Positions 18,469-55,988 of a DNA stretch of 64,000 nt are shown here, one piece after another. The position numbers and the translations under genes are program-made. Source of the stretch: Candidatus Acetothermia bacterium (lineage in GTDB: Bacteria; Bipolaricaulota; Bipolaricaulia; UBA7950); contig JAJHSB010000062.1 in the NCBI GenBank assembly GCA_022684035.1, positions 6,054 through 70,053 of the forward strand, written 5' to 3'. Every line of letters begins with the position of its first letter. The first letter of the stretch is position 1. Under the pieces are notes generated by a model, which had not been told where the DNA came from, did no database searches, and worked only from the letters and a program-made list of their open reading frames with translations.

Positions 18469-18501
18469 GTTTCTCCTTAAATTTGCAAATCTGGAGTTCG
18501 C

Positions 18502-19242: not shown

Positions 19243-19255
19243 TCCGTAGTCTGAC

Positions 19256-19627: not shown

Positions 19628-19643
19628 CGTAATAGTTTAGTTT

Positions 19644-19900
19644 TCCTAAATCTTTTACTTATTCACCAAATCCTAACTCCTAAACTCTAAATTCTAAATC
19701 CTAAATTCTAAATCCTAAATTCTAAACAAATTTAAATGTTCCAAATCCAAATAACCAAAACTATGTTTTTCTACTTTCTGCATTTTTCTATTATTATTTC
19801 TCTTGCAAACTCCTCTGTTCTTCTCTCTAAATCATAAAGTTTTGAATTTTGGTCATTTGAGTTTTGAGTTTGTTTGGAGTTTAGAGTTTCGGATTTAGAC
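19644..19900. repeat. MITE-like inverted-repeat element, family 2 (larger copy)
   Basis: A tandem 14-mer (taaattctaaatcc)x3 arm, an AT-rich centre, then the inverse arm ttttgaattttggtcatttgagttttgagtttgtttggagtttagagtttcggatttag. Confidence 0.7.
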
Positions 19901-19943
19901 TTTTCCATAATTATTCCCTCTTCTTCTCAGAAAGACTGAACTG

Positions 19944-20867
19944 TTACTTGCCATCTGGCTGTAAATATATGATAATTTGCAGCCTCGTCCCCCCGCCGAG
20001 CGTTGACTGTAGGTCCATCTTGTCAGCGCACTTCTGAATGTTATTTAAGCCGACTCCCGCACCAAAGCCCATCTCCCGCGCCCACTCTGACGCGGTAGAG
20101 AAACCAGGTTGCATAGCTTGTGCAATATCGGCGATGCCCGGTCCGTCGTCCAATGCCACTATCCGTACTCTTTCGGGATTGATCTCAGCCATGATCTCCC
20201 CGCCGCGGTCGGTGTGAATGATAATATTTATCTCCGCCTCGTAGACGGCGATAGCAACACGACGGGTGATCTGCGGATTGCCACCTAAGCGAGTCAGCGC
20301 TCGCTTGATCTTGCTGGACGCTTCTCCACCCCGATCGAAGTCTCTCGGACGCACATCGTAGCGCAGCAGCAGGCTGGTGTGGTCAGAGATAATGTCCTCA
20401 AAGATATGGCTGGCGCGATAGCGGCTGATCTCCTCCGCATGATAGTCCTTCTCAATCGCCTTAAGTAGACCATGCGTGATGTCCCCCCGCGTGATGATGC
20501 CGACTAAATTGCCATCTTCGTTCACCACCGGCAGCCGCCCCACTCCCGTCTTTGAGAAGATCTTGACCGCCGCGATCGCTGATTCGTGAGTCGAGATAGT
20601 ATATACATCGCGGGTCATCCGGTCGCTGACTGGTGATTCCATGTCTCCCTCCGAGAGAGACTTGATCAGGTCTTCCAGGCTGATTATGCCTACCATTCGG
20701 CCATTCTCCACCACCGGTGTGCCCGAGATCCTATTTATGCGTAGCTGTTCCCGCAGCTCGGCCATTGAAGTATCAGGAGTAACAGTAACAATCCTCTTGG
20801 TCATCACCTGCTCGATCTTCAGTTCATAGATTAACTCTTGAACCCTGGTGATCTCGACGCGCTTCAC
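19944..20867 (-). CDS. CBS-pair + GHKL ATPase fusion protein
   Basis: Two CBS domains (N-terminal half) followed by an HATPase_c domain (IHTDRGGEIMAE...DDGPGI...GFGAGVGL). Confidence 0.75.
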   Translation of the reverse strand: MKRVEITRVQELIYELKIEQVMTKRIVTVTPDTSMAELREQLRINRISGTPVVENGRMVGIISLEDLIKSLSEGDMESPVSDRMTRDVYTISTHESAIAAVKIFSKTGVGRLPVVNEDGNLVGIITRGDITHGLLKAIEKDYHAEEISRYRASHIFEDIISDHTSLLLRYDVRPRDFDRGGEASSKIKRALTRLGGNPQITRRVAIAVYEAEINIIIHTDRGGEIMAEINPERVRIVALDDGPGIADIAQAMQPGFSTASEWAREMGFGAGVGLNNIQKCADKMDLQSTLGGGTRLQIIIYLQPDGK

Positions 20868-20935
20868 TATATGCTGTCTCTCCTCTTCTCTCTGGGAGAT
20901 ATGATAAGGGGTGATTTAGATCATTCACCTCATCG

Positions 20936-21286
20936 TTATACGTCACAGCTATTCATCCCAGCCTGAAACAAACAGCCGCATGCTTTGAACATAGTGGATT
21001 TGGTAGTAACTAACGGAATGCCTTTTTCCTCGGCGAGGAGAATGGTCTCCAGCGGGGGACGCTTACCACGAACAAAGACGATGGCCACGATCTCGGCCAT
21101 CTCCGCTGTTCGTACCACCTGTGGGTTTGTCAACCCAGTCAGCAGCACTGCCCCTGATCTGGCATGAGTCAAAACATCGCTCATTAAGTCTGCTCCACAC
21201 GCACTGGAGATGTCCATGTCTAAATCAGCGTTCGCAGTAATAAGCGCGCCATCTACAATCGAGATGACCTCACTCAACTTCATCAT
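20936..21286 (-). CDS. DRTGG domain protein (second copy)
   Basis: DRTGG-like sequence after MMKLSEV. The ORF-track extension to 21355 runs into the MITE fragment. Confidence 0.65.
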   Translation of the reverse strand: MMKLSEVISIVDGALITANADLDMDISSACGADLMSDVLTHARSGAVLLTGLTNPQVVRTAEMAEIVAIVFVRGKRPPLETILLAEEKGIPLVTTKSTMFKACGCLFQAGMNSCDV

Positions 21287-21293
21287 CCCCTCC

Positions 21294-21345
21294 CCTAACC
21301 CGGACAAGCCGGAAATTCCAATGACCAAATCCCAATAACGAAAAT
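21294..21345. repeat. family-1 MITE terminal fragment
   Basis: cccggacaagccggaaattccaatgaccaaatcccaataac matches the family-1 MITE terminus. Confidence 0.6.
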
Positions 21346-21523
21346 TAAATATCAAAGTTTAAATATCAAAATTACATATAAAAATACAAAAATTATTTCC
21401 CCAAACCCCTATACTTCCAATCATTGTTCAACTGATAACGTCGACTTGTTCTTGAGCTTATCATCTCTCACAGAGGTTGTCAAGGAATATCTTTGTTCCG
21501 AGCGATCTTTCTCCTGAAAGAAA

Positions 21524-21572
21524 AAAACACTTGAACCCTTGCACCCTTGAATCCTTTTTAGTAACTAAATTG
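21524..21572. repeat. 'aatttagttgctaaaaagg' 3'-end hairpin element (reverse orientation)
   Basis: Reverse complement ccaatttagttactaaaaaggattcaagggtgcaagggttcaagtg, immediately downstream of the dinB stop. Confidence 0.65.
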
Positions 21573-34169: not shown

Positions 34170-34401
34170 CCAAACTTCCTCGTATCACAAATTATGTAAA
34201 GCCAGAGTATATCGCCTTATGCGAAGTGTTACAAGATACCGCATTGCCTCATCAAAAAAGTACTCCAAATCGTATCGTTGCCTTAAATGAAAAATGTACT
34301 TAAATTTGGCGGTAAAGGAAGAGATGGTTGTCTCCTACCATGGTGTGCAGTTACGCCTCGCCTCGTGGAATAGACTATTCCCATGGAGCCTGTCATCTAT
34401 T

Positions 34402-34480
34402 AAAATTTAGTTGCTAAAAAGGATTCAAGGATTCAAGTATTCAAGTATTCCGCTTGACTCCTTGACCCCTTGACCCCTGG
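34402..34480. repeat. 'aatttagttgctaaaaagg' hairpin element between the hydA 3' end and metG
   Basis: A (gattcaag)x3-4 array followed by an inverse (ccttgacc)x3 array forms a long imperfect hairpin. The same family occurs at 53500-53606 and 21524-21572. Confidence 0.7.
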
Positions 34481-34490
34481 AATTGTCCTG

Positions 34491-36533
34491 TCAGTCTTTG
34501 ACGCACGAGATACTTTGTAAAGATAGCTGCGCCAACTTCTTCACCACCATCTCCTCAAAGATCGCTGGAAGGCGCTCTTCGGTCACTCCTTCAAGTATTT
34601 GTCCATCAATAACTGCTGATGGTCCACGATCGCATTGCTCAAGACAGAAAGTGGCTTGCACGTTGACGCGATCGGATAGTCCCTGCTTTTCAATCAAGGC
34701 TGCCAATTCTTGTATCACACCATAAGACCCTCGCAGATAGCAACTAGTGCCGACACAAACCTGGATCTCCATCGTAGGCCGCTCAGCGGCTACAACTGGG
34801 ATGAATTGTTCAAATACGCGCCGGCGTGAGGCGTAGGTAGTATGCAAGGCGTGGTGGGCAACATCGCTTCCTGGCTCCTTCAGCCATTGCTGGTAAAGTT
34901 CGCTAATGAATGGATTATCCTGTACTGTTCGTATCTGCTTCAGCCGGTCTGCTGCTCGCATACCTCCTGCTCGCTGCTGCCGGACCTGGATATTGTTGAT
35001 TAGGGGTTGTCCACCGCCAGCGACACATCCTCCTGGGCAGGCCATTACCTCCACCAGATGGTATGAGAGTTCTCCCGCGCGCAGGGCAGCGATCAACTTC
35101 TTGGCTGCCCCCAAAGTGTGTACCGTAGCGATGCGAATTACCCTGTTACCTACGGGTACGATAGCCTCATTCACATTGGGGAATCCCTCCACCGGAGTAA
35201 AGGCAAAATCAACCGGCGGCCTTTTCCCGGACAACTTATAGATCGCGGTTCGTATTACTGCCGTGCTCACTCCGCTGAAGACGCCGAAGATGGTGCCCGC
35301 ACCGCTAGCAAATCCAAATGGCAAATCGAAGGAGTCATCTTCAAGTTCCGCAAAGACGATTCCCATCTCGCGAATCATCCGCGCCAGTTCGTGAGTGGAA
35401 ATAACGGCGTCGACATCAGGACTTCCCTCTGTAGTGAGTTCCGGCCGCCTGGCCTCAAACTTCTTGGCTGTGCAGGGCATCACCGAAACCACAAAGATAT
35501 CCTGTGGGGAGAGCCCTTGTTCTTTGGCATAGAACTTCTTGAGCAGTGAGCCGAGCATCTGTTGGGGAGAACGGCAAGTTGAGAGTTGAGGCAGAAGATC
35601 AGAGTGGAAGTGTTCAGCATACTTTACCCACGCTGGACAGCAACTGGTAAATTGCGGTAGATGCTCCCCTGTTTCGAGATGATGCAAGAATTCGGTCGTT
35701 TCCTCCATCGTTGTCAAATCAGCAGCAAAAGAGGTATCGTAAATCTCGTGAAATCCCAGCCGACGCAGAGCAGCGACCATCTTACCGGTACTGATTGTGC
35801 CTGCTTTCTCCCCGAACTCTTCGCCCAGGGCGACGCGCACCGCCGGGGCTGTCTGAACGATCACTCGCTTATGTGGGTCGCTTAGAGCTGCCCAGACAGC
35901 ATCAATCTCGAATTTTATCGTCAGCGCAGCAGTAGGACAGGCCTGGATACACTGACCGCATCCCACACATTCCCCCTCAGCCAGAGATTTATTGAATGCC
36001 GGTATTACTTGTACTGCCGCACCCCGGTAGGCAAAGTCCAGCACTCCGATTCCTTGAATCTCGGAACAGTTGCGCACGCAGTTCCCACACAGCACGCACT
36101 TATTCGGATCGCGTACCAGGCTAGGGCTCGATGTGTCGCGCGGCAGTGGTTCTCGATCTTTACCAAAGCGAATATTGCCAATGCCGAAGCGGAGTGTTAA
36201 TTCCTGCAGCCGGCACTGGCCGCTCTTCTCACAGATAGTGCAATCACGATCGTGATCAGCGAGGAGCAGCTCCAGAATGGTGCGGCGCATTCGTTGCAAA
36301 CGAGGAGTAGTGGTGCGAATGACCATTCCGTCGGCTGGCGGGGTGGAGCAGGAAGCAATAAAGCCCAGTTTTTCTTCCTCTACTATACACATGCGGCATG
36401 CTCCGAAGTCCGATAACTCGAAGTGGTAACAGAAGGCCGGGAGATCCACACCGGCTTTGCGAACTAGCTCCAGGATGTTTGTTTCTCCATCGATGGGTAA
36501 GACTTTTTTGTCAATCGTGATTGTACCACTCAC
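34491..36533 (-). CDS. hydA: [FeFe]-hydrogenase catalytic subunit HydA (group A3, Thermotoga-type, with C-terminal thioredoxin-like 2Fe-2S domain)
   Basis: N-terminal 2Fe-2S and 4Fe-4S ferredoxin domains. H-cluster motifs L1 TSCCPAWV, L2 MPCTAKKFE and L3 EVMACPGGC. C-terminal NuoE-like CVGTSCY...CLEQCDRGP. GTG start with a GGAGGT RBS. Confidence 0.9.
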   Translation of the reverse strand: MSGTITIDKKVLPIDGETNILELVRKAGVDLPAFCYHFELSDFGACRMCIVEEEKLGFIASCSTPPADGMVIRTTTPRLQRMRRTILELLLADHDRDCTICEKSGQCRLQELTLRFGIGNIRFGKDREPLPRDTSSPSLVRDPNKCVLCGNCVRNCSEIQGIGVLDFAYRGAAVQVIPAFNKSLAEGECVGCGQCIQACPTAALTIKFEIDAVWAALSDPHKRVIVQTAPAVRVALGEEFGEKAGTISTGKMVAALRRLGFHEIYDTSFAADLTTMEETTEFLHHLETGEHLPQFTSCCPAWVKYAEHFHSDLLPQLSTCRSPQQMLGSLLKKFYAKEQGLSPQDIFVVSVMPCTAKKFEARRPELTTEGSPDVDAVISTHELARMIREMGIVFAELEDDSFDLPFGFASGAGTIFGVFSGVSTAVIRTAIYKLSGKRPPVDFAFTPVEGFPNVNEAIVPVGNRVIRIATVHTLGAAKKLIAALRAGELSYHLVEVMACPGGCVAGGGQPLINNIQVRQQRAGGMRAADRLKQIRTVQDNPFISELYQQWLKEPGSDVAHHALHTTYASRRRVFEQFIPVVAAERPTMEIQVCVGTSCYLRGSYGVIQELAALIEKQGLSDRVNVQATFCLEQCDRGPSAVIDGQILEGVTEERLPAIFEEMVVKKLAQLSLQSISCVKD

Positions 36534-36587
36534 TTTTTACCTCCGATGATAAAATTAACCACGAATATACGCGAATTGACACGAATG

Positions 36588-36986
36588 TTATAAAACTATT
36601 CTTTCATATTCTAACTTCGGTCTTGCAAAATTTATTATTATTCCTAACTTTAACCCAGTTGCTTTAAGATAATTTATTACTTGAGCACGGTGAATATCAG
36701 TAATCTTCTCAACACACTTCATCTCTAAAATTATTTCATCCTCTACAAGTATATCAGCAAAATATTCGCCGACTATTTCTCCCTCAAAATGCACTTTGAG
36801 CGGTGCTTGCTGAACTACCTTCATCCCATTTTTATTCAATTTTATTATTACTGCATTTTCATACACTTTCTCTAAAAATCCTGCTCCAAGAGTATTATGC
36901 ACCTCCATTACTGCGCCTATCACTTTATAGGAAAGTTCTTTATGCAGTATTTTTTCGTGTTCATTAGTGTTCATTCGTGGTTTCAT
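36588..36986 (-). CDS. GxxExxY family protein (PD-(D/E)XK-like) inserted between hydB and hydA
   Basis: The family signature reads GAGFLEKVYENA; 132 aa. Its first 11 codons are encoded by a 30-bp repeat that also occurs intact directly after the hydB stop. Confidence 0.8.
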   Translation of the reverse strand: MKPRMNTNEHEKILHKELSYKVIGAVMEVHNTLGAGFLEKVYENAVIIKLNKNGMKVVQQAPLKVHFEGEIVGEYFADILVEDEIILEMKCVEKITDIHRAQVINYLKATGLKLGIIINFARPKLEYERIVL

Positions 36987-37116
36987 TAGGTAATTCGGTA
37001 ATTCGGGGTCAGGTCTTGAATTTTAACATTTATCTTAAGCCACGAATTAACACGAAAAGTTATAAAACAAGCTCTTTATAAATAATTTCGTGTTCATTAG
37101 TGTTCATTCGTGGTTT
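36954..37116. repeat. duplicated intergenic segment flanking the GxxExxY gene
   Basis: The 30-mer ttcgtgttcattagtgttcattcgtggttt is identical at 36954-36983 and 37087-37116. cgaattNacacgaaNNgttataaaac is also present at 36572-36596 and 37043-37068. Confidence 0.85.
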
Positions 37117-37119
37117 TAT

Positions 37120-38943
37120 CTATTTAAGTCGTCCCGGAATGCATGTCACCGCGGCAAATCGCTCCGGGCATACACTCAAGCATATCCCACATCTGTTACA
37201 CTTATCCTGGTCTATAACGTGAACCTCTTTCTTACCACCTGTAATCGCTCCGATAGGGCACTTCCGCAGACAGATCATACAGGCTTTACATTTATCCGGC
37301 GCGATATAGTAAGAGATAAGCGGCGGGCACACCCTTGCGGGGCATTTTTGTTCACAGATATGAGCGATGTACTCATCATGGAAGTAGCGAAGCGTTGTGA
37401 GCACCGGGTTGGGAGCTGTTTTCCCCAGTTGACAGAGTGATCCATCCTTGACGGTAGTAGCTATTTCTTGTAGCAAATCGAGGTCCTCTTCCCGCCCATC
37501 TCCGCTGGTGATTCGGGTGAGAATCTCCAGCATCCGCTTCGTCCCCTCGCGACAGGGCACGCACTTACCACAGGATTCATTCTGGGTAAACTTCATAAAG
37601 TAGCGAGCTACCTCTACCATGCAATCATCCTCACTGAGAACTACCAGCCCGCCCGAACCCATGATCGCTCCTGCGGAGGTTAAAGATTCATAATCTATAC
37701 CATAATCCAGGTGTGTCGCCGGAAGGCATCCCCCAGAAGGGCCGCCTATTTGCACCGCCTTGAACTTTTTGCCGCCTTCTACACCTCCTCCGATATCAAA
37801 GATGATTTGGCGTATGGTGAGGCCAAATGGTATTTCGACCAATCCAGTGTTATTTACCTTTCCGGTCAAAGCGAAGGTCTTTGTCCCGGGATTAGTAGGT
37901 GTACCAAAGCTGCGAAACCAATCCGCCCCGTTTAATATGATTCCTGGTACATGGCCTAAAGTCTCGACGTTATTGATGACTGTCGGATTACCCCGCAGCC
38001 CTGAAGTTGCCGGAAAAGGAGGTCGCTGCCGTGGCATTCCACGTCTGCCTTCCATGGCAGCAATCATCGCCGTCTCTTCGCCGCAGACAAAGGCACCTGC
38101 CCCTTCCATGATATCGATCTGACAGGAGAAATCGCTTCCGAGAATCCCATCGCCAATCAAACTATATCCTTGGGCATCATCTATCGCCTGCTGCAAGCGC
38201 TTTACGGCGAGTGGGTACTCAGCTCGTACGTAATAAATATATCCCTGCCGAGCTCCAATCGCATAGGCGGCAATCAGCATTCCCTCTAATACCCGATGGG
38301 GATCGCCCTCAAGTAAGCTGCGGTTCATAAATGCCCCTGGATCACCCTCATCACCGTTACAGACCACATACTTCACCTCTCCGGGAGCGCGGTAAGCAAA
38401 CTCCCACTTCCGCCCAGTGGGGAACCCGGCACCGCCACGGCCGCGCAGGATTGAGCGTTTGATCTCTTCAATAACATCTTCCGGGTTCATTTCAAAGAGG
38501 GCTTTACCGAGAGCCTCATATCCACCCCGAGCGATATACTCCTCGATGTTCTCCGGATTAATCACACCGCAGTTGCCGAGAACAATACGCTGCTGCTTGG
38601 CGTAGAAGGGCATCTCGCTGTAGTGCGGCAAGGCCTGATGAGAGATCGGTTCTTTATAGGTAAGGGCTTCCACCACCCGACCTTTCACAAAGGTCTCCTC
38701 CACCAGATGAGGGATGTCTTTCTCCTGAACACGGCAGTAAAGAATTCCCTCGGGATAGATGATCACCAACGGGCCCATTTCGCAGAGCCCGTGACAACCG
38801 GTGAAAATTACCCGCACCTCATCTTCAAGGCCGCGGCGTGCAATCTCTACCTTCAGGAGATTGAATATCTTGTCCGCACCGGAGGCAACACATCCGGTAC
38901 CTCTACATACCAGGGCATTTGCTCGATAAAAAGCTTCAGTCAT
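37120..38943 (-). CDS. hydB: [FeFe]-hydrogenase beta subunit HydB (NuoF-like NADH/FMN-binding flavoprotein with 2Fe-2S and 2x4Fe-4S)
   Basis: NuoF motifs (GRGGAGFPTG, C-x2-C-x2-C-x3-CP pairs). Start reset to ATG 38943, which has an AAGGAGGT RBS; the ORF-track extension to 38988 runs into the MITE. Confidence 0.9.
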   Translation of the reverse strand: MTEAFYRANALVCRGTGCVASGADKIFNLLKVEIARRGLEDEVRVIFTGCHGLCEMGPLVIIYPEGILYCRVQEKDIPHLVEETFVKGRVVEALTYKEPISHQALPHYSEMPFYAKQQRIVLGNCGVINPENIEEYIARGGYEALGKALFEMNPEDVIEEIKRSILRGRGGAGFPTGRKWEFAYRAPGEVKYVVCNGDEGDPGAFMNRSLLEGDPHRVLEGMLIAAYAIGARQGYIYYVRAEYPLAVKRLQQAIDDAQGYSLIGDGILGSDFSCQIDIMEGAGAFVCGEETAMIAAMEGRRGMPRQRPPFPATSGLRGNPTVINNVETLGHVPGIILNGADWFRSFGTPTNPGTKTFALTGKVNNTGLVEIPFGLTIRQIIFDIGGGVEGGKKFKAVQIGGPSGGCLPATHLDYGIDYESLTSAGAIMGSGGLVVLSEDDCMVEVARYFMKFTQNESCGKCVPCREGTKRMLEILTRITSGDGREEDLDLLQEIATTVKDGSLCQLGKTAPNPVLTTLRYFHDEYIAHICEQKCPARVCPPLISYYIAPDKCKACMICLRKCPIGAITGGKKEVHVIDQDKCNRCGICLSVCPERFAAVTCIPGRLK

Positions 38944-38956
38944 CAGATTACCTCCT

Positions 38957-39200
38957 TCCCCGGACAAGCCGGAAATCCCAATAACCAAATCTCAATTTCC
39001 AAACAATAATCAAATTTCAATAATCAAACTTCTATTGCGATTTGTCGATAATCGAGGAGAAGACTCCGGCCTTTCTGTTTGAGATTTTGGTCATTGGTCA
39101 TTGAGCTTTGTTTGGAAATTGGTGCTTGGAATTTGTGATTTCAACTCCTTGCCATTCCCCGCCTTCGCGAGGACAAGTTTGCGTCAGATTTCAGATTTTG
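38957..39200. repeat. family-1 MITE-like element, about 245 bp, complete, inside the hyd operon
   Basis: Left arm ccggacaagccggaaatcccaataaccaaatctcaatttccaaacaataatcaaa. Right arm tttgagattttggtcattggtcattgagctttgtttggaaattggtgcttggaatttgtgatttcaa. About 90% identical, as reverse complement, to 55611-55865. Confidence 0.85.
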
Positions 39201-39215
39201 GGGACTTATAGATGA

Positions 39216-39590
39216 TCAGTCTCGTTCCACTCGGCCAAACGCCCATTCCTGGACCACGTTGCCCTTGACCAGATGCTCCTCGATCAGGCGAGAGACCATA
39301 TCGGGATGGACATTTCCATAGGTGATCCGCGGGTGACCGGCCTGTTCGATATCTACCAGTGGCTCCTTGTAGCACATTCCAATACAGCCCACAGTAGTCA
39401 CATGAGCATCGATCTCTCGCCGACGCAGCTCCTCCAGAATGGCGAGCATCGTCTCCCGTGCGCCGGCAGCGATCCCGCAGGTTCCCATACCCACGGTGAT
39501 CGTCGTTCCCGTTTTCAGCCGTACTTTAATATTCTTCTGAGCTTCTTCTCGGATTCGCTTCAGATCCTCCAAACTTTTCATCCGGGGCAT
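39216..39590 (-). CDS. thioredoxin-like [2Fe-2S] ferredoxin (NuoE-like fold) of the hydrogenase cluster
   Basis: CGIAAG...CIGMC cysteine pattern. ATG 39590 with an AAGGAGGA RBS. Confidence 0.8.
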   Translation of the reverse strand: MPRMKSLEDLKRIREEAQKNIKVRLKTGTTITVGMGTCGIAAGARETMLAILEELRRREIDAHVTTVGCIGMCYKEPLVDIEQAGHPRITYGNVHPDMVSRLIEEHLVKGNVVQEWAFGRVERD

Positions 39591-39647
39591 TCTCAAATCC
39601 TCCTTCCCTACTTCAATTTCTTTCCATTTCGCGCACGACTTTAGATT

Positions 39648-39890
39648 TTAGACCTTAAGCCCTTCCTTAAAATTCATTACATCAACGGTAACGCGGGAAA
39701 AGGGCTTTCCCTCTCTTTGAACCATGCTCTCCATTTCCTTATAAACTTCAGAGCTGAAGAACTTCTCGCCACACTGTTGACATACCTTTGCCGGAACATC
39801 CTCAAAAATAACCAGCTTCTCACCCTACCAGAAATCTACATTGACCTCCTCTTTCACCTTCCCCCCACAGAAATAGCACTTAGTTAACAT
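39648..39890 (-). pseudogene. YgiT-type zinc-finger (MqsA-like) antitoxin with in-frame TAG at codon 22
   Basis: MLTKCYFCGG...DFW*GEKLVIFEDVPAKVCQQCGEKFF shows the two CxxC pairs of the YgiT zinc finger. The in-frame amber codon sits at 39825-39827 and the frame stays open to 39648. The start is 3 nt after the DUF4258 stop. Confidence 0.6.
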
Positions 39891-39892
39891 TT

Positions 39893-40195
39893 CTATCTTC
39901 TCCTTGTTCTTAAATCCTCTTCCCATTCGGCGGGCTGTGGTTCGTACGCTATTATAATCTCCTCTTCTGCTTTACCGCAAACCACATGTAACGGTCTTCC
40001 TTCGTGAGTGAAGCCCAGGATCAGACAACTTGGTCCTCTATGATCACGTGGATAATCCTCGATTATCTCGCCTTTAGAAATAGCTTCTTCAATCTCCCGA
40101 ACGCCTATCCTTCTCCTTCGAATCTTTTCAGTATGTGTAAACGACCCATGATACTTCCCCTCTTTAACCTTCTGCCTAATTTCGTTTAAAGTCAC
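39893..40195 (-). CDS. DUF4258 protein (putative toxin of a DUF4258/YgiT-ZnF pair)
   Basis: The motifs GEIIEDYPRDHRGPSCLILGF...GRPLHVVCG...IIIAYEPQPAEWEEDLRTRRR match the DUF4258 consensus. GTG start. Confidence 0.8.
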   Translation of the reverse strand: MTLNEIRQKVKEGKYHGSFTHTEKIRRRRIGVREIEEAISKGEIIEDYPRDHRGPSCLILGFTHEGRPLHVVCGKAEEEIIIAYEPQPAEWEEDLRTRRR

Positions 40196-40276
40196 TCTCG
40201 ACCCCCTTTACGCACTTAAGAACCTTATGCCCAATGATGAAGTCAAATACTACATAGGGTTCTCATTGCAATCCTC

Positions 40277-40396
40277 CTAACCCGAACAAGCCGGAAATCC
40301 CAATGACCAAATCTCAAATTCCAAACAATAATCAAATTCCAATAACCAATCCCTGCCTTCGGCTCGTGGCTCGTGGCTCGTGGCTCGTGGCTCGAA
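40277..40396. repeat. family-1 MITE half-element plus (GGCTCGT)x5 heptamer array
   Basis: cccgaacaagccggaaatcccaatgaccaaatctcaaattccaaacaataatcaaattccaataaccaa followed by ggctcgtggctcgtggctcgtggctcgtggctcg. Confidence 0.8.
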
Positions 40397-40451
40397 GGAT
40401 TTGATTAAAGACCTTTTCCTCCAGCCTCCAGCCACCAGTCACCAGCTACTT

Positions 40452-40982
40452 TCAACTTTCCTTGCGACTGGCCAGCGTGTCGATAATAGTTACCGCCGCA
40501 TCCGGACTCATGTGAGCGTGTACCTGGCCGTTGATTGTCATTACCGGCGCCAGAGCGCAGCATCCAACACAAGCGACTGTCTCTAAGGTAAAGAGCATAT
40601 CTGAGGTGGTCGAGTCTCCCTCTTTGAGGTCATACTTACGGCAAATAGCGTCATAGATAGACATAGAGCGCTTGACGTGACAGGCTGTGCCATCGCATAC
40701 AGTCACCAAATAACGACCTTTGGGCTTAAGTGAGAACTGGGCGAAGAAAGTGGCCACCCCAAAGACAGTAGCTGGGGAAAGATCCAGTGCAGTAGCGATG
40801 TAGGTAAGAACCTCCTCAGGTAGGTAGCGATACTCTTCCTGCACCGCCTGCAAAATGGAGATCAGAGACTGATTGCGGCTAGTTTGCTCGGCGATTATCT
40901 CGTTCAAGCGGAAAAACCGGCGGCGCCTCCTGTCTCCATCTGGGGAGACTCGTATTTGCTGTTTACCCTGCTCAGTGCTCAT
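40452..40982 (-). CDS. hydC: [FeFe]-hydrogenase gamma subunit HydC (NuoE-like 2Fe-2S)
   Basis: CDGTACH...CVGCCALAP motif of the NuoE family. Confidence 0.9.
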   Translation of the reverse strand: MSTEQGKQQIRVSPDGDRRRRRFFRLNEIIAEQTSRNQSLISILQAVQEEYRYLPEEVLTYIATALDLSPATVFGVATFFAQFSLKPKGRYLVTVCDGTACHVKRSMSIYDAICRKYDLKEGDSTTSDMLFTLETVACVGCCALAPVMTINGQVHAHMSPDAAVTIIDTLASRKES

Positions 40983-41002: not shown

Positions 41003-41038
41003 TCGTTGCTCGTGACTTGTGACTTGTGACTCGTTGCC
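41003..41038. repeat. heptamer array (GTGACTT/GTGACTC) in the hydC 5' leader
   Basis: tcgttgctcgtgacttgtgacttgtgactcgttgcc lies about 20 nt upstream of the hydC start and abuts its RBS on the coding strand. Confidence 0.75.
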
Positions 41039-41151: not shown

Positions 41152-41385
41152 CTAAATTCTGAAGTTTTGCGCAAAATGGCAAGGAATTGAAATCTCAAAT
41201 CCCAAGCACCAATTTCCAAACAAAGCTCAATGACCAATGACCAAAATCTCAGACAGAAAAGCCAGAGTATTTTTCTCGCTTAGGGACAAATTGCTCATAG
41301 AAGTTTGGTTATTGGGATTTGGTTATTGTTTGGAAATTGAGATTTGGTCATTGGGATTTCCAGCTTGTCCGGTTTAGGGACAGAA
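41152..41385. repeat. family-1 MITE-like element (complete copy)
   Basis: ctaaattctgaagttttgcgcaaaatgg...aatgaccaatgaccaaaatctca [about 50-bp core] tttggttattgggatttggttattgtttggaaattgagatttggtcattgggatttccagcttgtccgg. Confidence 0.85.
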
Positions 41386-41475
41386 CAAACTTTGTCGATT
41401 ACCGAACAAAAAATAGCCGGTCTGGACTTACGTGATCGCAATCCAGCCCGGCTATAAAGAGTTATCTTTTATCGT

Positions 41476-42444
41476 TTACCAGTTCGGGAACAACTCTCCC
41501 AATGCGAACTCAGCTGAAATAATCAGCGTATGATTGCCTACCAGGCCGCCAAACGCTACTCCGCCGAGGCCGTGTAATAGGTATGCTACATCAACCCGCA
41601 ATCCGGCGATGCTGATCCCAGCTCCGACGCTGAAGAGGCTCTGTTCGCCGATCAGGGTTATACCGGCACGGAGAGCCAGTTCTTCGATTACCGCGACTTC
41701 CAATCCGACACGGATGTCACCGAGCGCAAGATCGCCGAATGCGAGTCCAGTGCCGGCAGTGACATCGACATCCACCGTAGCGAGGAGCCGACCCTCAAGT
41801 GCGGTAAGTGCGCCGCCGATCGTAAAGACTCCAGTTACGATGCCAAAATCACCGACCGTTGTTCCGCCGATATCAGTGGCGCGAAACCCGAGTGTAAAGA
41901 CCTCGCCGATTGGGACAAGTAGACCGAGATCGAATCCGAAACCAGTATCACCGCCGGCGATGGTTGGCGCCATGTAGAATTTAAAGTTAAGGCCAGCAAG
42001 CCCGAAATCAAGGTCGGTAGCGAGACTGGCAGTGATCACTGATTCTTCCCAATGGATTGGAGCAGCAATGGGGATACGACGAATATCTGCGCCACGTCCT
42101 CCCTCGAGGAAGTGCGTTATCGTCATCCTCTGCCAACTGGCACCGAGAGCAAACCCATTGAGCGGGATACTGGCATGGGCAAATTGGTGTGTCGCTCCGA
42201 TGCCGAACAGATTGGTCGACATTCCGCCGAGCCGGATATCAGGCAGAGTTGCCAGACCTGCTGGATTCCAAAATCCGGCTGTGCCGTCATCTGCGACAGC
42301 GACGAATGCGCCGCCCATTGCCAGCGCTCGCGCACCGATTCCGTGCCGGAAGGCAAGGAAAGCATCTCGGCCAAGACCAGTGGCACCAGCAACAGCAGAG
42401 AGTGCCAAAGTAAGGGCCAGCGTCAATATTATTACTCGTTTCAT
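41476..42444 (-). CDS. FadL/PorV-like outer-membrane beta-barrel protein
   Basis: Signal peptide, then an N-terminal LAMGGAFVAVADDGTAGFWNPAGLA (FadL/PorV-type NPA) motif, a Gly/aromatic-rich beta-strand pattern and a C-terminal aromatic residue. Confidence 0.55.
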   Translation of the reverse strand: MKRVIILTLALTLALSAVAGATGLGRDAFLAFRHGIGARALAMGGAFVAVADDGTAGFWNPAGLATLPDIRLGGMSTNLFGIGATHQFAHASIPLNGFALGASWQRMTITHFLEGGRGADIRRIPIAAPIHWEESVITASLATDLDFGLAGLNFKFYMAPTIAGGDTGFGFDLGLLVPIGEVFTLGFRATDIGGTTVGDFGIVTGVFTIGGALTALEGRLLATVDVDVTAGTGLAFGDLALGDIRVGLEVAVIEELALRAGITLIGEQSLFSVGAGISIAGLRVDVAYLLHGLGGVAFGGLVGNHTLIISAEFALGELFPNW

Positions 42445-42520
42445 CTTAAGTTTTAACCTCCTATTTCATACCCGTAGATCAGCGAAGCCAGCTAGGCCTC
42501 GCTGATCATTACAGGTCAAT

Positions 42521-45500
42521 TTACTTACGAAAGACCGTGCCACGGAAGGTGTAGATTATAGCACCATCGCGCAACACAGCAACGAAGATATACGGCCCTT
42601 TAGCAAGTAGAACGCCGGCTTCATCCCGACCGTCCCAGACGACTTCCTCTCCAGGACCGACATCGTGCGCTATGATATCCCGTACCTCACGTCCGAGCAT
42701 ATTGAAGATCCTTATGGTAAACGTCTCGGCAACACCGACTCCTTTAAAGGAGAAGCGCGACCCCCGCTCATGGACGACGATGAACTCGTCAATCTCGAGG
42801 GGTGGTGGTACCACTACTACTGGTTTGACAGTGATCGTTACCGTAGTTATATCTGATATGCCGCCACGGTCATCCAGCGCACGGTAGGTAAAAGTAACGA
42901 TGCCGTGCCACCCAGCAGGCGGCGTAAAGGTGAAGGAGCCGTCAGGACGCAGATCCAACACGCCGTGGACAGGTGCTGTTACCAGTTGCGCTCGCAGTGG
43001 GTCATTATCCGGGTCAGTGTCATTTGCCAGTACTCCTGGCGCAGGAACAGTGAGAACCGTGTCCATAAGGACTGGATAGGTATCAGCTACTGCGACTGGC
43101 GGACGGTTGACGACTGCCACGACTCGTGTGGCGATCAATGCCGCATCACCAGGATCAGATGGATCCTGGAAAAAGGCGAGGATCGTATCACCGGTCCGTG
43201 CCCCAAGGTGCTCTACAAGTCTAATCGGCGTAACGCTGCGGAAAAGCCCGCTGCCAATCTCGGTCTCCCAGAGCACTACCCGCACCCTCACATTTGTGCG
43301 TGAGTTGAAGACTTCAATTAGTATTGAAGGGTGTTCTACCTCTGGAACTGAAACGAGCGATTCACGTCGGTAATTATCTTCGTTCTGATCCGGGTCATAG
43401 ACCTCGATAAAGGCCGCTTCAGCGATCGTATAGCCGATGACCGGCACGCCGGCAGCATCGACAAATCGCATATTGAGACGACCGGTTTTACCATCAAAGA
43501 CCAGTGTGCGACTGACTTCCATCTCCGCGAATGCGACCCGGTAATGAGCATACCAGTAGGTGATCCGCTCGGGTTCAGCAGGATAACTTGCAACCTCTAC
43601 CGCGTTAAACTGGACAATCACTGCACTCCGATTGAACGTCTCAAGGTCCTTATTACCCAGATCGAACGGAGCCCATGGAGGTTCAGCGATGCCACCAGCC
43701 CATACCACTGGATAGAGACCCAGACCGGTTCGAGCGCGAAAGATCGGTGCGTTGACTCCAACCTCATCGAGGATGATCCATTCCCGGTCAGTAGATTGAG
43801 GGCTAAATATCTGCACCACGACCGCGTCGCGTGCTCGACGGTTGCGATTGAGAGGAGAGTACATTACCTCAACATTGATCCGGTCACGACCGAGGTCAAA
43901 TTCCTCTGGGCGAGTCCAATCTGCGGCAGCAAAGTAAATTTGAGGACTTACCACCGGCGTGCGTATTGCATATGCAGTGTCAAACGCCACATCACTGAAG
44001 TCATTCGGATCAACGTAAAACGCAGCAAGGACATATTCTACCCGCAGGCGCGTAAATCCGAGCGCTCTCTGAATATCGATAAGCCTGAGCTCAAATATAC
44101 CGGTATTGGCACCTGTCTCCTGAGCAAAGAAGACGATGCGAGTTAGTCCGGGTCCGGCCGGATCTCCGGGGAGCGGAGCACCGGCAACATTTAGTGTGTC
44201 AAAGCCATACCCACGCCCTTCGTTATTGATAAGACGCATAGGTTCACCAGGCCGAGCCATATCGACAACATAGACGATAAAGCGATCCGGATCATAGATA
44301 TTGTACCAGCGGATCGGTTCGCCGCGACAGACCCAGCTCTTTATCGGGGGAGGCACATCAGGCGCAGTGACAGTGATCGTTACCGTTGCCGGTCCTGATA
44401 CACCGCCTCTAACATCTCTTGCGTGGTAGGTAAAGGTGACGATGCCGAAGAACCTGACCGGCGGCGTGAAGGTAAAGGAGCCGTCAGGACGCAGATCCAA
44501 CACGCCATGGGCAGGTCTTTCTACCAGCACTGCGCTCAGTGGGGCAGCAACCGGAGCCACGGTGTCATTTGCCAGTACTCCTAGCGCAGGAACAGTGAGA
44601 ATTTCCCCCCATGGTATAGTATAAGTATTAGGGAGCGCGACCGGCGGAGTAAATCCAAGGGGATGAGCAACAGTGATTGTTACCGTTGTCTCTGGTATTG
44701 TAACCAATCCTGATACGCCGCCTGTAGAATCTACTGCGCGGTAGGTAAAGGTGACGATACCGAAGAACCCGCGTGGTGGGCTAAAGGTAAAGGAGCCGTC
44801 AGGACGCAGATCCAACACGCCGTGGGATACCGGACGTACCAGCACTGCTCTCAGTGGGAAGTTACCGTCCGGGTCAGTGTCATTTGCCAGTACTCCTGGT
44901 ACTCCTGGTACTCCTGCAGTGAGAACCAGGTCCATAGGGACTGTATAGAAGAGATCAGCTACTGCGACTGGCAACAGAAAGCCGGCACGCAGAACAGTGA
45001 TCGATACCGTTGCCGGTTCTGATACACCGCCTCTAATATCTTCTTCTGCGCGGTAGGTAAAGGTGACAACACCGTGAAAGTCGGGCGGTGGCGTGAAGGT
45101 AAAGGAACCGTCAGGACGCAGATCCAACACGCCGTGGCATACCGGACGTACCAGCACTGCTCTCAGTGGGGCACCATCCGGAGCCACGATGTCATTTGCC
45201 AGTACTCCTGCTGGCAGCGCAGCAACGCGGAGAATTCCCCTCCATTGTATTGTATAAGTATTAGGGAGCGCGACCGGCGGAGTCTGGAGTGCCGGATCCA
45301 CAGAGATTCCTTCTACTCCGCCTGATTCAAACAACATCTGGAAATTTGTGGCGCTTCGCCCTCGCGCGGCAGGAAATTGAATTGGCTCAGGACCAGCAGC
45401 AGATATCTCAACTGGATTCCACGACCCTGGATTGACGATGATAAATATTGGTACCTCTTCTACTTCCATCGGGTCCAGGTTCTCATCAGGATCAGTAATC

Positions 45501-46246
45501 CTGATCAGAGCATCGTCCTCCTCTATGTCAGGGTAATGCGTTTTGTCCCAGGTAATTGTGGCTTCAGTCCGGATGATCTGCACCATTGCACTGGCAGCAT
45601 CAGCCTGATCTATCGCCGATATATAGAACCCGATCAGCGTATCGCCATCGACAAACCGGCCAAGACGTGGCGGGTAAGGAGAAAGGGTAGGGCGTGCGAC
45701 ATCCCTTTGGCCTGCGCCACCTAAGCGAAATGTGTCGCCCAGCGCGAATTCCAGTGGGATTATCCACATTTCTGGCAGCGGCGGCACTTGCAACGGCCGC
45801 AGCGGCGCTGGAATGTGCGTTCCGAGTGGAAGCCTTGTTCTGATTACATCCTCAGGATGCAGCACACGTGCACCGATGATGATCGCTTCTGAAAGGACAA
45901 AGTAGCCGGTATTAGGTCCGGTCTCCTCCAAATAGCGCTTAGGTGCGCCGTCCTTTAGTTCTGCAAGCCAGGCAGGGTTAAGCTCAAGGCGGGTATTAGG
46001 GTTAAAAACGCTGATCTCTATGGCAGCTATTCTATCAGGTTCAGCAGAATCGATATTACGGTCTGGATCAAAGACAACGATCCAGAGCCTATCTCCTGCT
46101 CTGACCTCTGTCACCCTGTCTCCGCGCTGGCCCAAAGGACACCGGGAAAACCATATCTCAGGTGCACTTGCCAGCGCATCGCCGGAAAAAACCGCGATGA
46201 AGAGAAGGGTTGCCAGACCGATTATATGAAACTTCTTGTTATTCAA
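42521..46246 (-). CDS. giant cell-surface protein with about 95-aa cadherin/VCBS-like repeats and a T9SS type-A C-terminal sorting domain
   Basis: Signal peptide. At least 4 repeats of the pattern VLANDTDPDG..LRAVLV.P.HGVLDLRPDGSFTFTPP..F.GIVTFTYRA.D..GG.S. The last about 70 aa (IRIFNMLGREV...VWDGRDEAGVLLAKGPYIFVAVL...FRGTVFRK) resemble Por_Secre_tail/FlgD-Ig. The gene contains near-identical DNA repeats of about 45 bp and longer. Confidence 0.75.
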   Translation of the reverse strand: MNNKKFHIIGLATLLFIAVFSGDALASAPEIWFSRCPLGQRGDRVTEVRAGDRLWIVVFDPDRNIDSAEPDRIAAIEISVFNPNTRLELNPAWLAELKDGAPKRYLEETGPNTGYFVLSEAIIIGARVLHPEDVIRTRLPLGTHIPAPLRPLQVPPLPEMWIIPLEFALGDTFRLGGAGQRDVARPTLSPYPPRLGRFVDGDTLIGFYISAIDQADAASAMVQIIRTEATITWDKTHYPDIEEDDALIRITDPDENLDPMEVEEVPIFIIVNPGSWNPVEISAAGPEPIQFPAARGRSATNFQMLFESGGVEGISVDPALQTPPVALPNTYTIQWRGILRVAALPAGVLANDIVAPDGAPLRAVLVRPVCHGVLDLRPDGSFTFTPPPDFHGVVTFTYRAEEDIRGGVSEPATVSITVLRAGFLLPVAVADLFYTVPMDLVLTAGVPGVPGVLANDTDPDGNFPLRAVLVRPVSHGVLDLRPDGSFTFSPPRGFFGIVTFTYRAVDSTGGVSGLVTIPETTVTITVAHPLGFTPPVALPNTYTIPWGEILTVPALGVLANDTVAPVAAPLSAVLVERPAHGVLDLRPDGSFTFTPPVRFFGIVTFTYHARDVRGGVSGPATVTITVTAPDVPPPIKSWVCRGEPIRWYNIYDPDRFIVYVVDMARPGEPMRLINNEGRGYGFDTLNVAGAPLPGDPAGPGLTRIVFFAQETGANTGIFELRLIDIQRALGFTRLRVEYVLAAFYVDPNDFSDVAFDTAYAIRTPVVSPQIYFAAADWTRPEEFDLGRDRINVEVMYSPLNRNRRARDAVVVQIFSPQSTDREWIILDEVGVNAPIFRARTGLGLYPVVWAGGIAEPPWAPFDLGNKDLETFNRSAVIVQFNAVEVASYPAEPERITYWYAHYRVAFAEMEVSRTLVFDGKTGRLNMRFVDAAGVPVIGYTIAEAAFIEVYDPDQNEDNYRRESLVSVPEVEHPSILIEVFNSRTNVRVRVVLWETEIGSGLFRSVTPIRLVEHLGARTGDTILAFFQDPSDPGDAALIATRVVAVVNRPPVAVADTYPVLMDTVLTVPAPGVLANDTDPDNDPLRAQLVTAPVHGVLDLRPDGSFTFTPPAGWHGIVTFTYRALDDRGGISDITTVTITVKPVVVVPPPLEIDEFIVVHERGSRFSFKGVGVAETFTIRIFNMLGREVRDIIAHDVGPGEEVVWDGRDEAGVLLAKGPYIFVAVLRDGAIIYTFRGTVFRK

Positions 46247-53499: not shown

Positions 53500-53606
53500 A
53501 ATTTAGTTGCTAAAAAGGATTCAAGAATTCGAGGGTTCAAGTATTCCCCTTGACTCCTTAACCCCTCGAATCCTCATGATCTCACCAACTTTTGGGGAGA
53601 TGATCC
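53500..53606. repeat. 'aatttagttgctaaaaagg' hairpin element, 24 nt after the stop codon
   Basis: aatttagttgctaaaaaggattcaagaattcgagggttcaagtattccccttgactccttaacccctcgaatcctcatgatctcaccaacttttggggagatgatcc. Confidence 0.7.
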
Positions 53607-55610: not shown

Positions 55611-55920
55611 TCTAAAATCTAAAGTCTTGCGCAAACTTGTCCTCGCGAAGGCGGGGAATGGAAAGAAGTTAAACTCACAAATTCCAAGCACCAATTTCCA
55701 AACAAATCTCAATGACCAATGACCAAAATCTCAAACAGAAAGGCCGGAGTCTTTTCCTCGATTGTCGACAAATCGCTCATAGAAGTTTGGTTATTAGGAT
55801 TTGGTTATTGTTTGGAAATTGAGATTTGGTCATTGGGATTTCCGGCTTGTCCGGGTTAGGGGCAAAACAAACTCTGTAGGATTAAGCAACGGGATTGCTT
55901 CGCAGACTCACAATGACAAA
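55611..55920. repeat. family-1 MITE-like element (complete) plus 'gcaatgac' tail, 5' of the tRNA cluster
   Basis: ggtctaaaatctaaagtcttgcgcaaa ... aatgaccaatgaccaaaatctcaaacag [core] tttggttattaggatttggttattgtttggaaattgagatttggtcattgggatttccggcttgtccgggttagg, then gggattgcttcgcagactcacaatgac. Confidence 0.85.
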
Positions 55921-55988
55921 GGGGAGAGAGGGCTATTTTGTATTCTCCTTGACCGATAGAACAGAACTTGGTAATATTCATTAGAGTT

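Follow-up and report, generated by a model that had tools for sequence, protein, structure and literature searches.

How can an operon of three tightly packed genes for a multisubunit redox enzyme take up foreign DNA between its genes and still encode what looks like a working enzyme? The question is raised by a stretch of 64,000 nucleotides (nt) from Candidatus Acetothermia bacterium (contig JAJHSB010000062.1; the whole stretch is referred to below as the window), where the genes hydC, hydB and hydA of an [FeFe]-hydrogenase are found among seven reading frames, all on the minus strand, between positions 34491 and 40982. The locus was compared with homologous hydrogenase loci on other contigs (L084 and L088-L093), which were found through HydA homologues (80-89% amino acid (aa) identity) traced to their contigs or, in the case of L091 and L092, were reached through HydB homologues. 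This comparison makes it likely that a functional HydABC-type operon has descended from a compact ancestor, and that two of its junctions were expanded by foreign DNA in the window lineage. All features named in a first-pass annotation of this DNA were recovered where it had placed them, on the minus strand. Read from hydC towards hydA, the locus contains the following (ORF, open reading frame; MITE, miniature inverted-repeat transposable element):

40452-40982, minus strand: hydC, NuoE-like [2Fe-2S] subunit, 176 aa (PF01257, 2e-47; best PDB match 7p5h_C, T. maritima HydC)
40267-40451, minus strand: MITE-like repeat copy E, a truncated form of the variant copy D, abutting the hydC stop codon
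39893-40195, minus strand: DUF4258 (RelE/ParE-superfamily) toxin gene, GTG start, 100 aa (PF14076, 5.6e-21)
39648-39890, minus strand: YgiT-type zinc-finger antitoxin ORF (TIGR03831, 7e-14, residues 5-48, a match that spans a stop codon)
39208-39606, minus strand: probably captured fdx segment with an ORF at 39216-39590, 124 aa, thioredoxin-like fold
38952-39207, minus strand: MITE-like repeat copy A, filling the fdx-hydB spacer (nhmmer E=2.6e-91)
37120-38943, minus strand: hydB, NuoF-like flavoprotein subunit, 607 aa (Pfam Complex1_51K and NADH_4Fe-4S; PDB matches 7t2r_B, 7q4v_B and 7p5h_B)
37040-37119, minus strand: ORF-less hairpin copy of the GxxExxY arms, 80 bp, directly after the hydB stop
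36557-36986, minus strand: GxxExxY (PD-(D/E)XK) gene (36588-36986) with inverted arms of ~29 nt (36954-36982 and 36557-36585)
34491-36533, minus strand: hydA, [FeFe]-hydrogenase catalytic subunit, 680 aa, GTG start (PDB matches 8a6t_A and 7p5h_A)

The products of the three hyd genes align over nearly their full length with chains A, B and C of the T. maritima enzyme (7p5h), HydA aligning with 7p5h_A across residues 9-655. In HydA, Pfam recognizes Fe_hyd_lg_C (3e-94), Fe_hyd_SSU and a C-terminal 2Fe-2S_thioredx domain (residues 580-662), and in HydB an N-terminal 2Fe-2S and a C-terminal 4Fe-4S domain. Tested against the patterns TSCCPxW, MPCxxKxxE and ExMxCxxGCxxGG, the H-cluster motifs of HydA are complete (L1, TSCCPAW, 296-302; L2, MPCTAKKFE, 352-360; L3, EVMACPGGCVAGG, 495-507), and the protein scores 476 with TIGR02512 (FeFe_hydrog_A), above the cutoff of 406. 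With a NuoF-like HydB and a NuoE-like HydC encoded alongside a HydA that carries the C-terminal 2Fe-2S domain, the partner set of the trimeric enzymes is present; here Pfam, motifs and PDB matches all agree with the subunit assignments made earlier. In domain content and partnership, these genes are an intact HydABC-type [FeFe]-hydrogenase set of the predicted electron-bifurcating class. They share with the T. maritima-type enzymes (7p5h; also T. kivui 8a6t and A. woodii 7q4v) the same three subunits and the same domain layout, namely a HydA with N-terminal 2Fe-2S and 4Fe-4S domains, the H-domain and a C-terminal thioredoxin-like 2Fe-2S domain, a NuoF-like HydB with N-terminal 2Fe-2S and C-terminal 2x[4Fe-4S], and a NuoE-like HydC. 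The differences are that the hydC-hydB-hydA order in the window is interrupted by 2.1 kb of foreign DNA, that a further small gene encodes a thioredoxin-fold protein with just three conserved Cys, that hydEFG, hydS and rex are not nearby, and that the window enzyme is known from its genes alone.

The hyd genes have intact reading frames and are under purifying selection, the ratio of nonsynonymous to synonymous substitution rates (dN/dS) being 0.12-0.14 for hydC, hydB and hydA. HydC is 83-86% identical in amino acids to its counterparts in L084, L088, L091 and L092 (85-86% to L091/L092), HydB 82-86% over its full length to L091 and L092, and HydA 86-87% to L091/L092 and 80-89% across the relatives. 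The true start of hydB is the ATG at 38943, rather than the TTG at 38988 given in the ORF list; it is preceded by GGAGG 8 nt upstream and is common to the relatives. HydA is somewhat longer (680 aa vs 668-669 aa in the relatives); homology to L091 stops at 34512, and the last residues (34491-34526 region) form a lineage-specific C-terminal tail running into repeat-rich DNA.

What did the operon look like before it was interrupted? The closest full-length orthologous loci, L091 and L092 (~85% nt identity), as well as L084, L088 and L090, have hydC, hydB and hydA adjacent or overlapping. ATGA overlaps occur at both junctions in L084, L088 and L090 and at hydB/hydA in L089 (a contig cut within hydB), while in L091 the hydC stop falls within the spacer between the Shine-Dalgarno (SD) site and the ATG of hydB. 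The usual setting of the compact operon in the relatives is rex-fdx86-hydS-spoIIE-[hydCBA]-hydF/G/E. Three blastn blocks (window 40995-40461, 38955-37128 and 36545-34512) correspond to L091 9444-9978, 9989-11813 and 11821-13855; they are contiguous in L091, so that the excess in the window amounts to 1505 bp between hydC and hydB and 582 bp between hydB and hydA (~2.1 kb). Neither fdx nor the toxin-antitoxin pair, the MITE-like repeat or GxxExxY was found in the hyd loci of L091, L092, L084, L088 and L090, as would be expected if, as the first-pass annotation had held, the intergenic content was inserted and is not ancestral spacer. Judged by these loci, the ancestral operon is compact, hydC-hydB-hydA, with a stop/start overlap or a 4-nt gap. 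The four-gene unit hydC-fdx-hydB-hydA proposed earlier thus needs revision: the inserts are real, while the ancestral unit comprised the three hyd genes and fdx lies within the 1505-bp block. In the same way, not three junctions were hit, as had been supposed, but two ancestral ones were expanded, the MITE-like copy having entered a fdx-hydB spacer that fdx itself had brought.

Homology to the relatives restarts 12-17 nt upstream of each start codon (for hydC, 13-17 nt upstream of the ATG in L091 and L092), and the SD sites of hydC, hydB and hydA are thus ancestral (38947-38955 for hydB, 36539-36543 for hydA). GGAGG-type ribosome-binding sites precede hydC, fdx, hydB and hydA, and that of fdx is shared with L093; the earlier view that each downstream gene keeps a strong site of its own stands. 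At the hydB/hydA junction the relatives read CGACTCAATAA[T/C]GGAGGTGAAAAATGAGTGG and the window CGACTTAAATAG, 582 bp, GGAGGTAAAAAGTGAGTGG. The stop/start overlap has been lost in the window operon, together with the last five residues of HydB, and the hydA start has changed from ATG to GTG. Compared at base-pair resolution, these filled and empty sites amount to a clean natural experiment on operon architecture, in which an overlapping, translationally coupled three-gene redox-enzyme operon tolerated 2.1 kb of selfish DNA only where the next SD stayed intact.

Before the origin of the inserts is considered, one may ask whether the arrangement exists in the organism at all. Another assembly record, L001 (GCA_025994725.1), contains the whole operon and both flanks, from the cadherin-like gene to folB, at 99.95% identity over 22 kb; L002 (GCA_022684005.1) runs from part of hydB through hydA to folB and L003, a separate Logan read-set assembly, covers GxxExxY and hydA, both 100% identical to the window. 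Since the same locus occurs in three separate public assembly records, an assembly artefact or chimera is very unlikely. A chimera would mean that foreign hydrogenase genes had been joined to Bipolaricaulota DNA via shared repeats, in assembly or binning. Such a join would account for the labels of the contigs that carry the nearest hyd homologues (Ca. Hakubella, Dehalococcoidia and Syntrophomonadaceae, that is, other phyla) and for the fact that the contigs of sister species all break just upstream of metG. It would have to be reconciled with identical continuous sequence in three records, and with the recurrence of the operon-internal repeat family 15 kb away, beside typical host genes; we regard it as extremely improbable.

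The host assignment of the region is supported by metG, which adjoins hydA and whose product is 84-90% identical to Bipolaricaulota proteins and then ~63% to the rest of the phylum. The hyd cassette lies between a PorV-like gene and metG. Contigs of sister species (MetG 89-90% identical) have only 65 nt upstream of metG in common with the window (34171-34235), so the location of the cassette, as far as these contigs reach, is species-specific. One of them, L174, carries tyrosine recombinase-like DNA (1-637) upstream of metG, where the window has hydA; the remaining ones stop 113-274 nt upstream of metG, the whole set including L174 (L174-L182) stopping at 113-704 nt, too short upstream of metG for an empty site of the whole cassette to be obtained from them. 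Variable and rich in repeats, the DNA upstream of metG has the look of a hotspot at which assemblies break. The placement of the nearest hyd homologues on contigs of other phyla suggests that the cassette has moved horizontally. The GC content (52-55% in the hyd genes, 46-49% in housekeeping genes) was also considered as proof of a horizontal origin and set aside as too weak, other genes in the window also exceeding 52%.

The 1505-bp block between hydC and hydB holds the gene that had been taken for a native member of the operon. The product of fdx matches the Pfam thioredoxin-like 2Fe-2S family below its cutoff (20.5 vs 24.8 bits). Its closest homologue is found in L093 (88% aa, 86% nt identity), where it sits 27 nt upstream of hydB' in a cluster ordered hydC'-HATPase-fdx-hydB'. 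A HydB scan of the genome collection, in which relatives among the matches listed were at most 65% identical and which served only to show the fdx-type gene order, found the same order to be common in Firmicutes and Synergistota clusters among those matches. No gene is present between hydC and hydB in any compact-type relative that covers this junction (L084, L088, L090, L091 and L092). The flanks of fdx, TCATCTAT and AGGAGGTAATCTGATG, are common to the window and L093. The empty site in L093 reads TAA-TCATCTAT-TTTGCA-AGGAGGTAATCTG-ATG and the filled one in the window TGA-TCATCTAT-[about 249 bp]-GGA-AGGAGGTAATCTG-ATG; from this comparison, copy A is an insertion and fdx came with its native downstream spacer. 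On this evidence fdx is probably not an original member of the operon and was probably captured by recombination from a fdx-type hydrogenase cluster, which points to a route by which a hydrogenase operon may gain a small subunit gene, namely recombination with a paralogous cluster type. The gene is under purifying selection (dN/dS 0.12 vs L093). The fdx family (window, L004-L044 and L093) has only three conserved Cys (GMGTCG...TGCIGMC), where the homologous N-terminal domain of HydB has four, so "ferredoxin" is a loose label, and the protein may not bind a canonical [2Fe-2S] cluster. It is presumably similar to HydD, a small subunit in the enzyme of A. woodii.

On the other hand, hydC-fdx-hydB-hydA could be the ancestral order of the window, L091 and L092, with fdx lost from L091 and L092 by deletion between SD regions. 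Near-identical direct repeats, GGAAGGAGG before fdx and GGAAGGAGG before hydB, could mediate such a precise deletion, and over HydB codons 1-150 the window, L091, L092 and L093 resemble one another to the same degree (81-86% nt), the fdx-type 5' end of hydB thus being common to this whole group. Yet all five other compact-type loci are without fdx, a gain in the window lineage takes one step where a gain followed by a loss takes two, and in L091/L092 hydC joins the hydB SD directly with no remnant of other sequence. We consider the loss scenario unlikely and retain the capture of fdx in the window lineage.

The similarity to L093 extends into hydB. Codons 1-225 of L093 hydB' are 81-85% identical (nt) to the window hydB, after which identity drops to ~60%, and over codons 151-225 L093 (82%) is a closer match to the window than L091 (78%) or L092 (76%). 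A two-part mosaic of HydB with fdx at the breakpoint was considered and ruled out, L091/L092 being 82-86% identical to the window over the full length. The gene is rather a patchwork of three zones, in which the window sides with L091, L092 and L093 (codons 1-225), with L091 and L092 only (codons 226-420), or with the whole compact type, L088 and L090 included (codons 421-600). This patchwork is common to the window, L091 and L092, and codons 151-225 alone hint at a L093-like tract specific to the window. By the pattern of identities, paralogous hydrogenase cluster types evidently recombine, the recombination in hydB being old. The L092 contig carries two hydrogenase clusters side by side. A duplicated 5' fragment of hydC in L092 (1533-1589; 82% identical to window 40995-40939) follows an element of the 23S_rRNA_IVP family (IVP; see below) and precedes the second, different cluster, hydB2-hydA2-hydC2; it suggests a rearrangement between paralogous clusters beside IVP elements.

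Next to fdx lies the cassette that had been described as a DUF4258/YgiT toxin-antitoxin pair. The families and the gene order are right, the two genes being co-oriented, 2 nt apart and from cognate families, and the toxin ORF is intact; an in-frame TAG at codon 22 (39827-39825), between the two CxxC pairs, interrupts the antitoxin. L001, identical to the window from 40969 to 35865, has the same TAG. From its sequence, the antitoxin is probably a pseudogene and the cassette is probably decaying; read-through of the TAG is an alternative. DUF4258 is listed among the BECR-fold type II toxins (RelE/ParE), and DUF4258-MqsA fusions have been reported (PMC11980606). As in MqsR/MqsA-like modules, the toxin gene comes first and is followed by a gene for a CxxC...CxxC zinc-finger antitoxin. 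Unlike MqsA, the window antitoxin consists of the zinc-finger part only (22 vs a cutoff of 61.8 with the full-length model TIGR03830), and unlike in those modules its frame holds a TAG and the cassette sits inside a metabolic operon. PADLOC gave no match for the toxin-antitoxin or GxxExxY proteins, and no solved relative of the DUF4258 or GxxExxY proteins was found in the PDB.

The remaining parts of the 1505-bp block are two palindromic repeats, copies A and E, which belong to a family with three further large copies in the window:

41152-41401, minus strand: copy B, full, upstream of hydC, inverted relative to copy A (nhmmer E=4e-85)
55612-55884: copy C, full
56608-56887: copy D, a variant with internal heptamer arrays

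Copy A is 92% identical to 55614-55855 (copy C) and 89% to 41175-41372 (copy B), far beyond chance for repeats of ~250 bp, and folds as a long imperfect hairpin (RNA fold z = -2.8). The census in the 64 kb is three full copies, one variant, one truncated and four degenerate copies of a small, non-coding, multicopy element. The inverted arms (57 nt, 70-72% complementary) are subterminal and the outer ends asymmetric. The earlier proposal of a complete 245-bp MITE between fdx and hydB holds insofar as this is a multicopy palindromic repeat. Against it, no target-site duplication is seen at copy A relative to the empty site in L093, the single site available for comparison, where TTTGCA is replaced by the element, and within the 64-kb window no transposase carrying ends that match was noticed, although no dedicated search was made. 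The half-MITE with a heptamer array that had been noted between hydC and fdx is borne out as copy E, which is 94% identical (40267-40450) to 56745-56863 in copy D. It consists of one arm (40267-40350) and two mutually complementary heptamer arrays (40361-40394 and 40421-40446; GGCTCGT x4.9 and CCAGCCA x3.7 by Tandem Repeats Finder, TRF), is without the second arm seen in copy D, and its arrays pair into a long hairpin (RNA fold z = -2.4). No Rfam family matches the repeats apart from one chance hairpin match. The family has no copies in related hyd loci and has copies elsewhere in the window; by this distribution, the repeats belong to the genome of the window.

Bacterial MITEs and other small palindromic repeats are known inside operons, and RNase III cleaves MITE-containing transcripts (PMC10969869). 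The window repeat resembles Chunjie of Geobacter uraniireducens, Correia of Neisseria and ERIC of Yersinia (PMC10969869), all being multicopy elements of ~250 bp with long inverted arms and hairpin folds, and all intercistronic with the flanking genes not destroyed. Unlike these, it has no target-site duplication at the only comparable site and no parent insertion sequence was found; its ends are asymmetric, its inverted repeat is subterminal and ~70% complementary, and one variant carries heptamer arrays.

Rather than neutral selfish passengers, the repeats could be regulatory modules (internal promoters, attenuators or RNA-processing sites) recruited to set subunit levels. The same internal point of the consensus marks the end of copies A and E, which directly abut AGGAGG, a -35/-10-like pair lies in the 3' flank of GxxExxY, 31 nt upstream of hydA, and the Correia and ERIC elements offer precedents. 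However, promoter- and terminator-like sites are not enriched over shuffles, the same family occurs in ordinary intergenic DNA elsewhere in the window, and the toxin-antitoxin cassette is decaying, as expected of junk. Recruitment seems to us rather unlikely, and we continue to read the repeats as insertions. Copies A (38952-38960) and E (40267-40275) are without the outer 14-21 consensus positions present in B, C and D; the AGGAGG after copy E precedes only a 7-codon ORF (ATGAGAACCCTATGTAGTATTTGA). That the end of the MITE had supplied the SD of hydB was considered and ruled out, as AGGAGGTAATCTGATG is common to L093 and L091, both without the MITE. A GC-rich palindrome common to both, GTCATTG[T/C]GAGTC[T/A]GCGAAGCAATC, precedes copies C and D (55890-55930 and 56890-56930) and constitutes a further repeat family.

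The 582-bp block between hydB and hydA is of another kind. It carries a GxxExxY gene (TIGR04256, 147.9 bits vs a cutoff of 35; PF13366 PDDEXK_3, 142 bits vs a cutoff of 22, 1e-41) of low GC content, ~32% (32.6% over 36557-36986) vs 52-53% in the flanking hydB and hydA, and no GxxExxY gene was found at the hydB/hydA junction of any relative. The 5' inverted arm encodes the first 11 codons. The duplicated flanking sequence reported earlier is a real direct repeat of 34 nt (36953-36986 and 37086-37119, 97% identical) and turns out to be an arm of the adjoining ORF-less hairpin copy, in which it pairs with 37041-37058 (repeat search and fold); its interpretation as a target-site duplication is thereby ruled out.

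To judge from other loci, hairpin arms are general in the GxxExxY family: significant 5'/3' inverted arms (z>4) were found in 44 of 75 metagenomic loci encoding homologues of 46-69% identity. The arms in the 75 loci consist of tandem 8-10-nt units that differ between lineages and are complementary within a locus, and many of the loci have an ATG no more than ~25 nt downstream from the 3' arm (a qualitative observation). An exact-protein lookup of the GxxExxY protein gave no second genomic context. The function of the family is listed as unknown, with multiple transfers (PMC3424549), and beyond that report the literature consulted says almost nothing about it. The family is very widespread, and an ORF in a hairpin with ORF-less derivatives is a general, barely described architecture.

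A similar pattern of arms and ORF-less derivatives is seen for a different protein family in the sister loci. In L091 (8985-9450) a four-helix-bundle 23S_rRNA_IVP (PF05635) gene in AAATCAAAA-type inverted arms lies between spoIIE and hydC, and in L092 (11279-11412) an ORF-less hairpin with AAATCAAAA-type arms (84-94% identical to those of L091) lies at the hydB/hydA junction; a further IVP element is present in L092 at 1091-1539. The L092 insertion is within a few nt of the point where GxxExxY entered in the window, and there, too, hydA has a GTG start and its SD is kept. The L092 hairpin, an ORF-less derivative of the IVP type of element, is by sequence comparison an insertion independent of that in the window, which supports the suggestion that these intergenic sites are permissive. 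The three insertions (window GxxExxY, L091 IVP and L092 hairpin) end immediately before the AGGAGG of the next gene. Two readings fit these loci alike: selection may leave open no more than a stretch of ~15 nt, or the elements may have a preference for such sites.

The element may be compared with the ORF-carrying intervening sequences (IVS) of 23S rRNA, such as the IVS with S23p of Coxiella burnetii (PMC4990558). In both, a small ORF is enclosed in inverted arms that form a long stem, ORF-less derivatives being represented here by the solo hairpin at 37040-37119, and both behave as selfish insertions in a transcribed region; the IVS-ORF protein family, PF05635, itself occupies hyd junctions in the sister loci and leaves ORF-less hairpins there. 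The differences are that the window ORF is a PD-(D/E)XK GxxExxY gene, that the element is intercistronic in a protein-coding operon, the host transcript being an mRNA rather than rRNA, and that excision by RNase III would apply by analogy only. Tentatively, and with the balance against it at present, GxxExxY and the four-helix-bundle "23S rRNA IVS protein" genes might form one under-described class of small mobile elements. Such elements would consist of a short ORF in lineage-specific inverted arms of tandem 8-10-nt units, spawning ORF-less hairpins; they would settle preferentially a few nt upstream of SD sites, in transcribed operons as in rRNA, and stem excision or transcript processing would keep them harmless. 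If this is true, the hyd operon records repeated independent hits by two families at one junction in sister lineages.

Put together, these comparisons suggest how the window operon may have arisen. The 1505-bp block would combine a shortened palindromic repeat, with two heptamer arrays that fold into a long hairpin just behind the hydC stop codon, the DUF4258/YgiT cassette with its since broken antitoxin, the thioredoxin-fold fdx with the downstream spacer from a fdx-type cluster, and the ~249-bp MITE-like repeat, which would have landed later in the 27-nt fdx-hydB spacer. The entry of fdx would be explained most simply by homologous recombination with a crossover inside hydB, the length of the tract being weakly supported. 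The 582-bp block would comprise the AT-rich GxxExxY gene in its inverted arms and the ORF-less copy of these arms. Presumably an insertion survives only if it falls after the indispensable part of the upstream gene and before the next SD; so narrow a target, a few nt in all, would account for the accumulation of independent elements at the same places. Coupled translation would have given way to independent initiation at the retained SD sites, as in the separately initiated units proposed earlier. In the blocks no convincing terminators or promoters are seen, and transcripts that begin upstream of hydC probably still extend through hydA, the genes being co-transcribed. The intercistronic hairpins, by analogy with Correia, ERIC and the rRNA intervening sequences, are candidate substrates of RNase III/RNase E or candidate stabilisers. 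All component pieces are of known kinds; less ordinary are the history resolved to the base pair, the acquisition of an additional subunit gene, repeated insertion at one junction by two hairpin-ORF families, and a hairpin architecture that is general in GxxExxY genes.

Several results weigh against this reading of the operon as functional and expanded piece by piece. HydA scores 730.5 bits with NF040763 (NCBIfam group A6, NADH-dependent), just under the cutoff of 765. The maturase genes hydE, hydF and hydG, directly downstream of the operon in the relatives, were not found in the 64-kb window, and neither hydS nor rex is near the window operon, unlike in the relatives. The dN/dS values are averages over a long branch, in which a very recent loss of function could go unseen. 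Concerning hydB, the identity differences behind the arrival of codons 1-225 with fdx are only a few percent, and a quartet test of informative sites for the L093-like tract was uninformative, since the split is expected anyway if L091 and L092 are sisters. Several orders of events fit the 1.5-kb block. Promoter-like sites (11 vs 9.2 in shuffled sequence) and terminator-like sites (8 vs 6.4) are not above shuffles, and co-transcription, internal promoters and RNA processing are all putative.

The insertions may instead have broken the operon, so that polar effects or termination at hairpins leave hydB and/or hydA unexpressed and on the way to becoming pseudogenes. Long hairpins do follow hydC and hydB, and the missing hydEFG, hydS and rex as well as the species-specific position would be in line with this. 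What makes it distinctly improbable in our view is that the three hyd genes and fdx are full length with all catalytic motifs present, that they evolve at the low dN/dS given above, that every SD is retained, that no hairpin with a T-run terminator occurs above chance, and that hydA of L092 likewise kept its SD, with a GTG start, after an independent insertion. A functional operon with two expanded junctions remains the reading we favor. For annotators of Bipolaricaulota and of serpentinite or subsurface metagenome-assembled genomes, the locus carries a warning, as repeats of this kind break assemblies.

A few features outside the operon deserve mention. Directly upstream of the cassette (41476-46246) are genes for a PorV/PorQ-like outer-membrane protein, below its family cutoff, and for a 1241-aa protein with Cadherin/Big_9 repeats, in which nearly all differences between the window and L001 cluster. 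Downstream of hydA lies a second group of small repeats:

34404-34478, no strand assigned: octamer arrays and a second small repeat family (TRF: AAGGATTC x4 and CTTGACCC x3.2)

Within it, 34404-34470 is 91% identical to 53500-53566, and the family also occurs at 21526-21571. With a tandem GTGACTT array at 41012-41031, short tandem arrays of 7-8 nt (AAGGATTC, CTTGACCC and GTGACTT) seem to be general in the spacers of this genome. A second hydrogenase-associated set, DRTGG/CBS-HATPase/DRTGG/PHP, lies at 18334-21369, and two of its genes show 46-53% aa identity to a set beside hydEFG in Ca. Hakubella. Degenerate copies of the same MITE-like family are found in and around its junctions (especially 19696-19896), one of them in a gap of 317 bp that separates two genes whose counterparts in L089 overlap by 14 nt.

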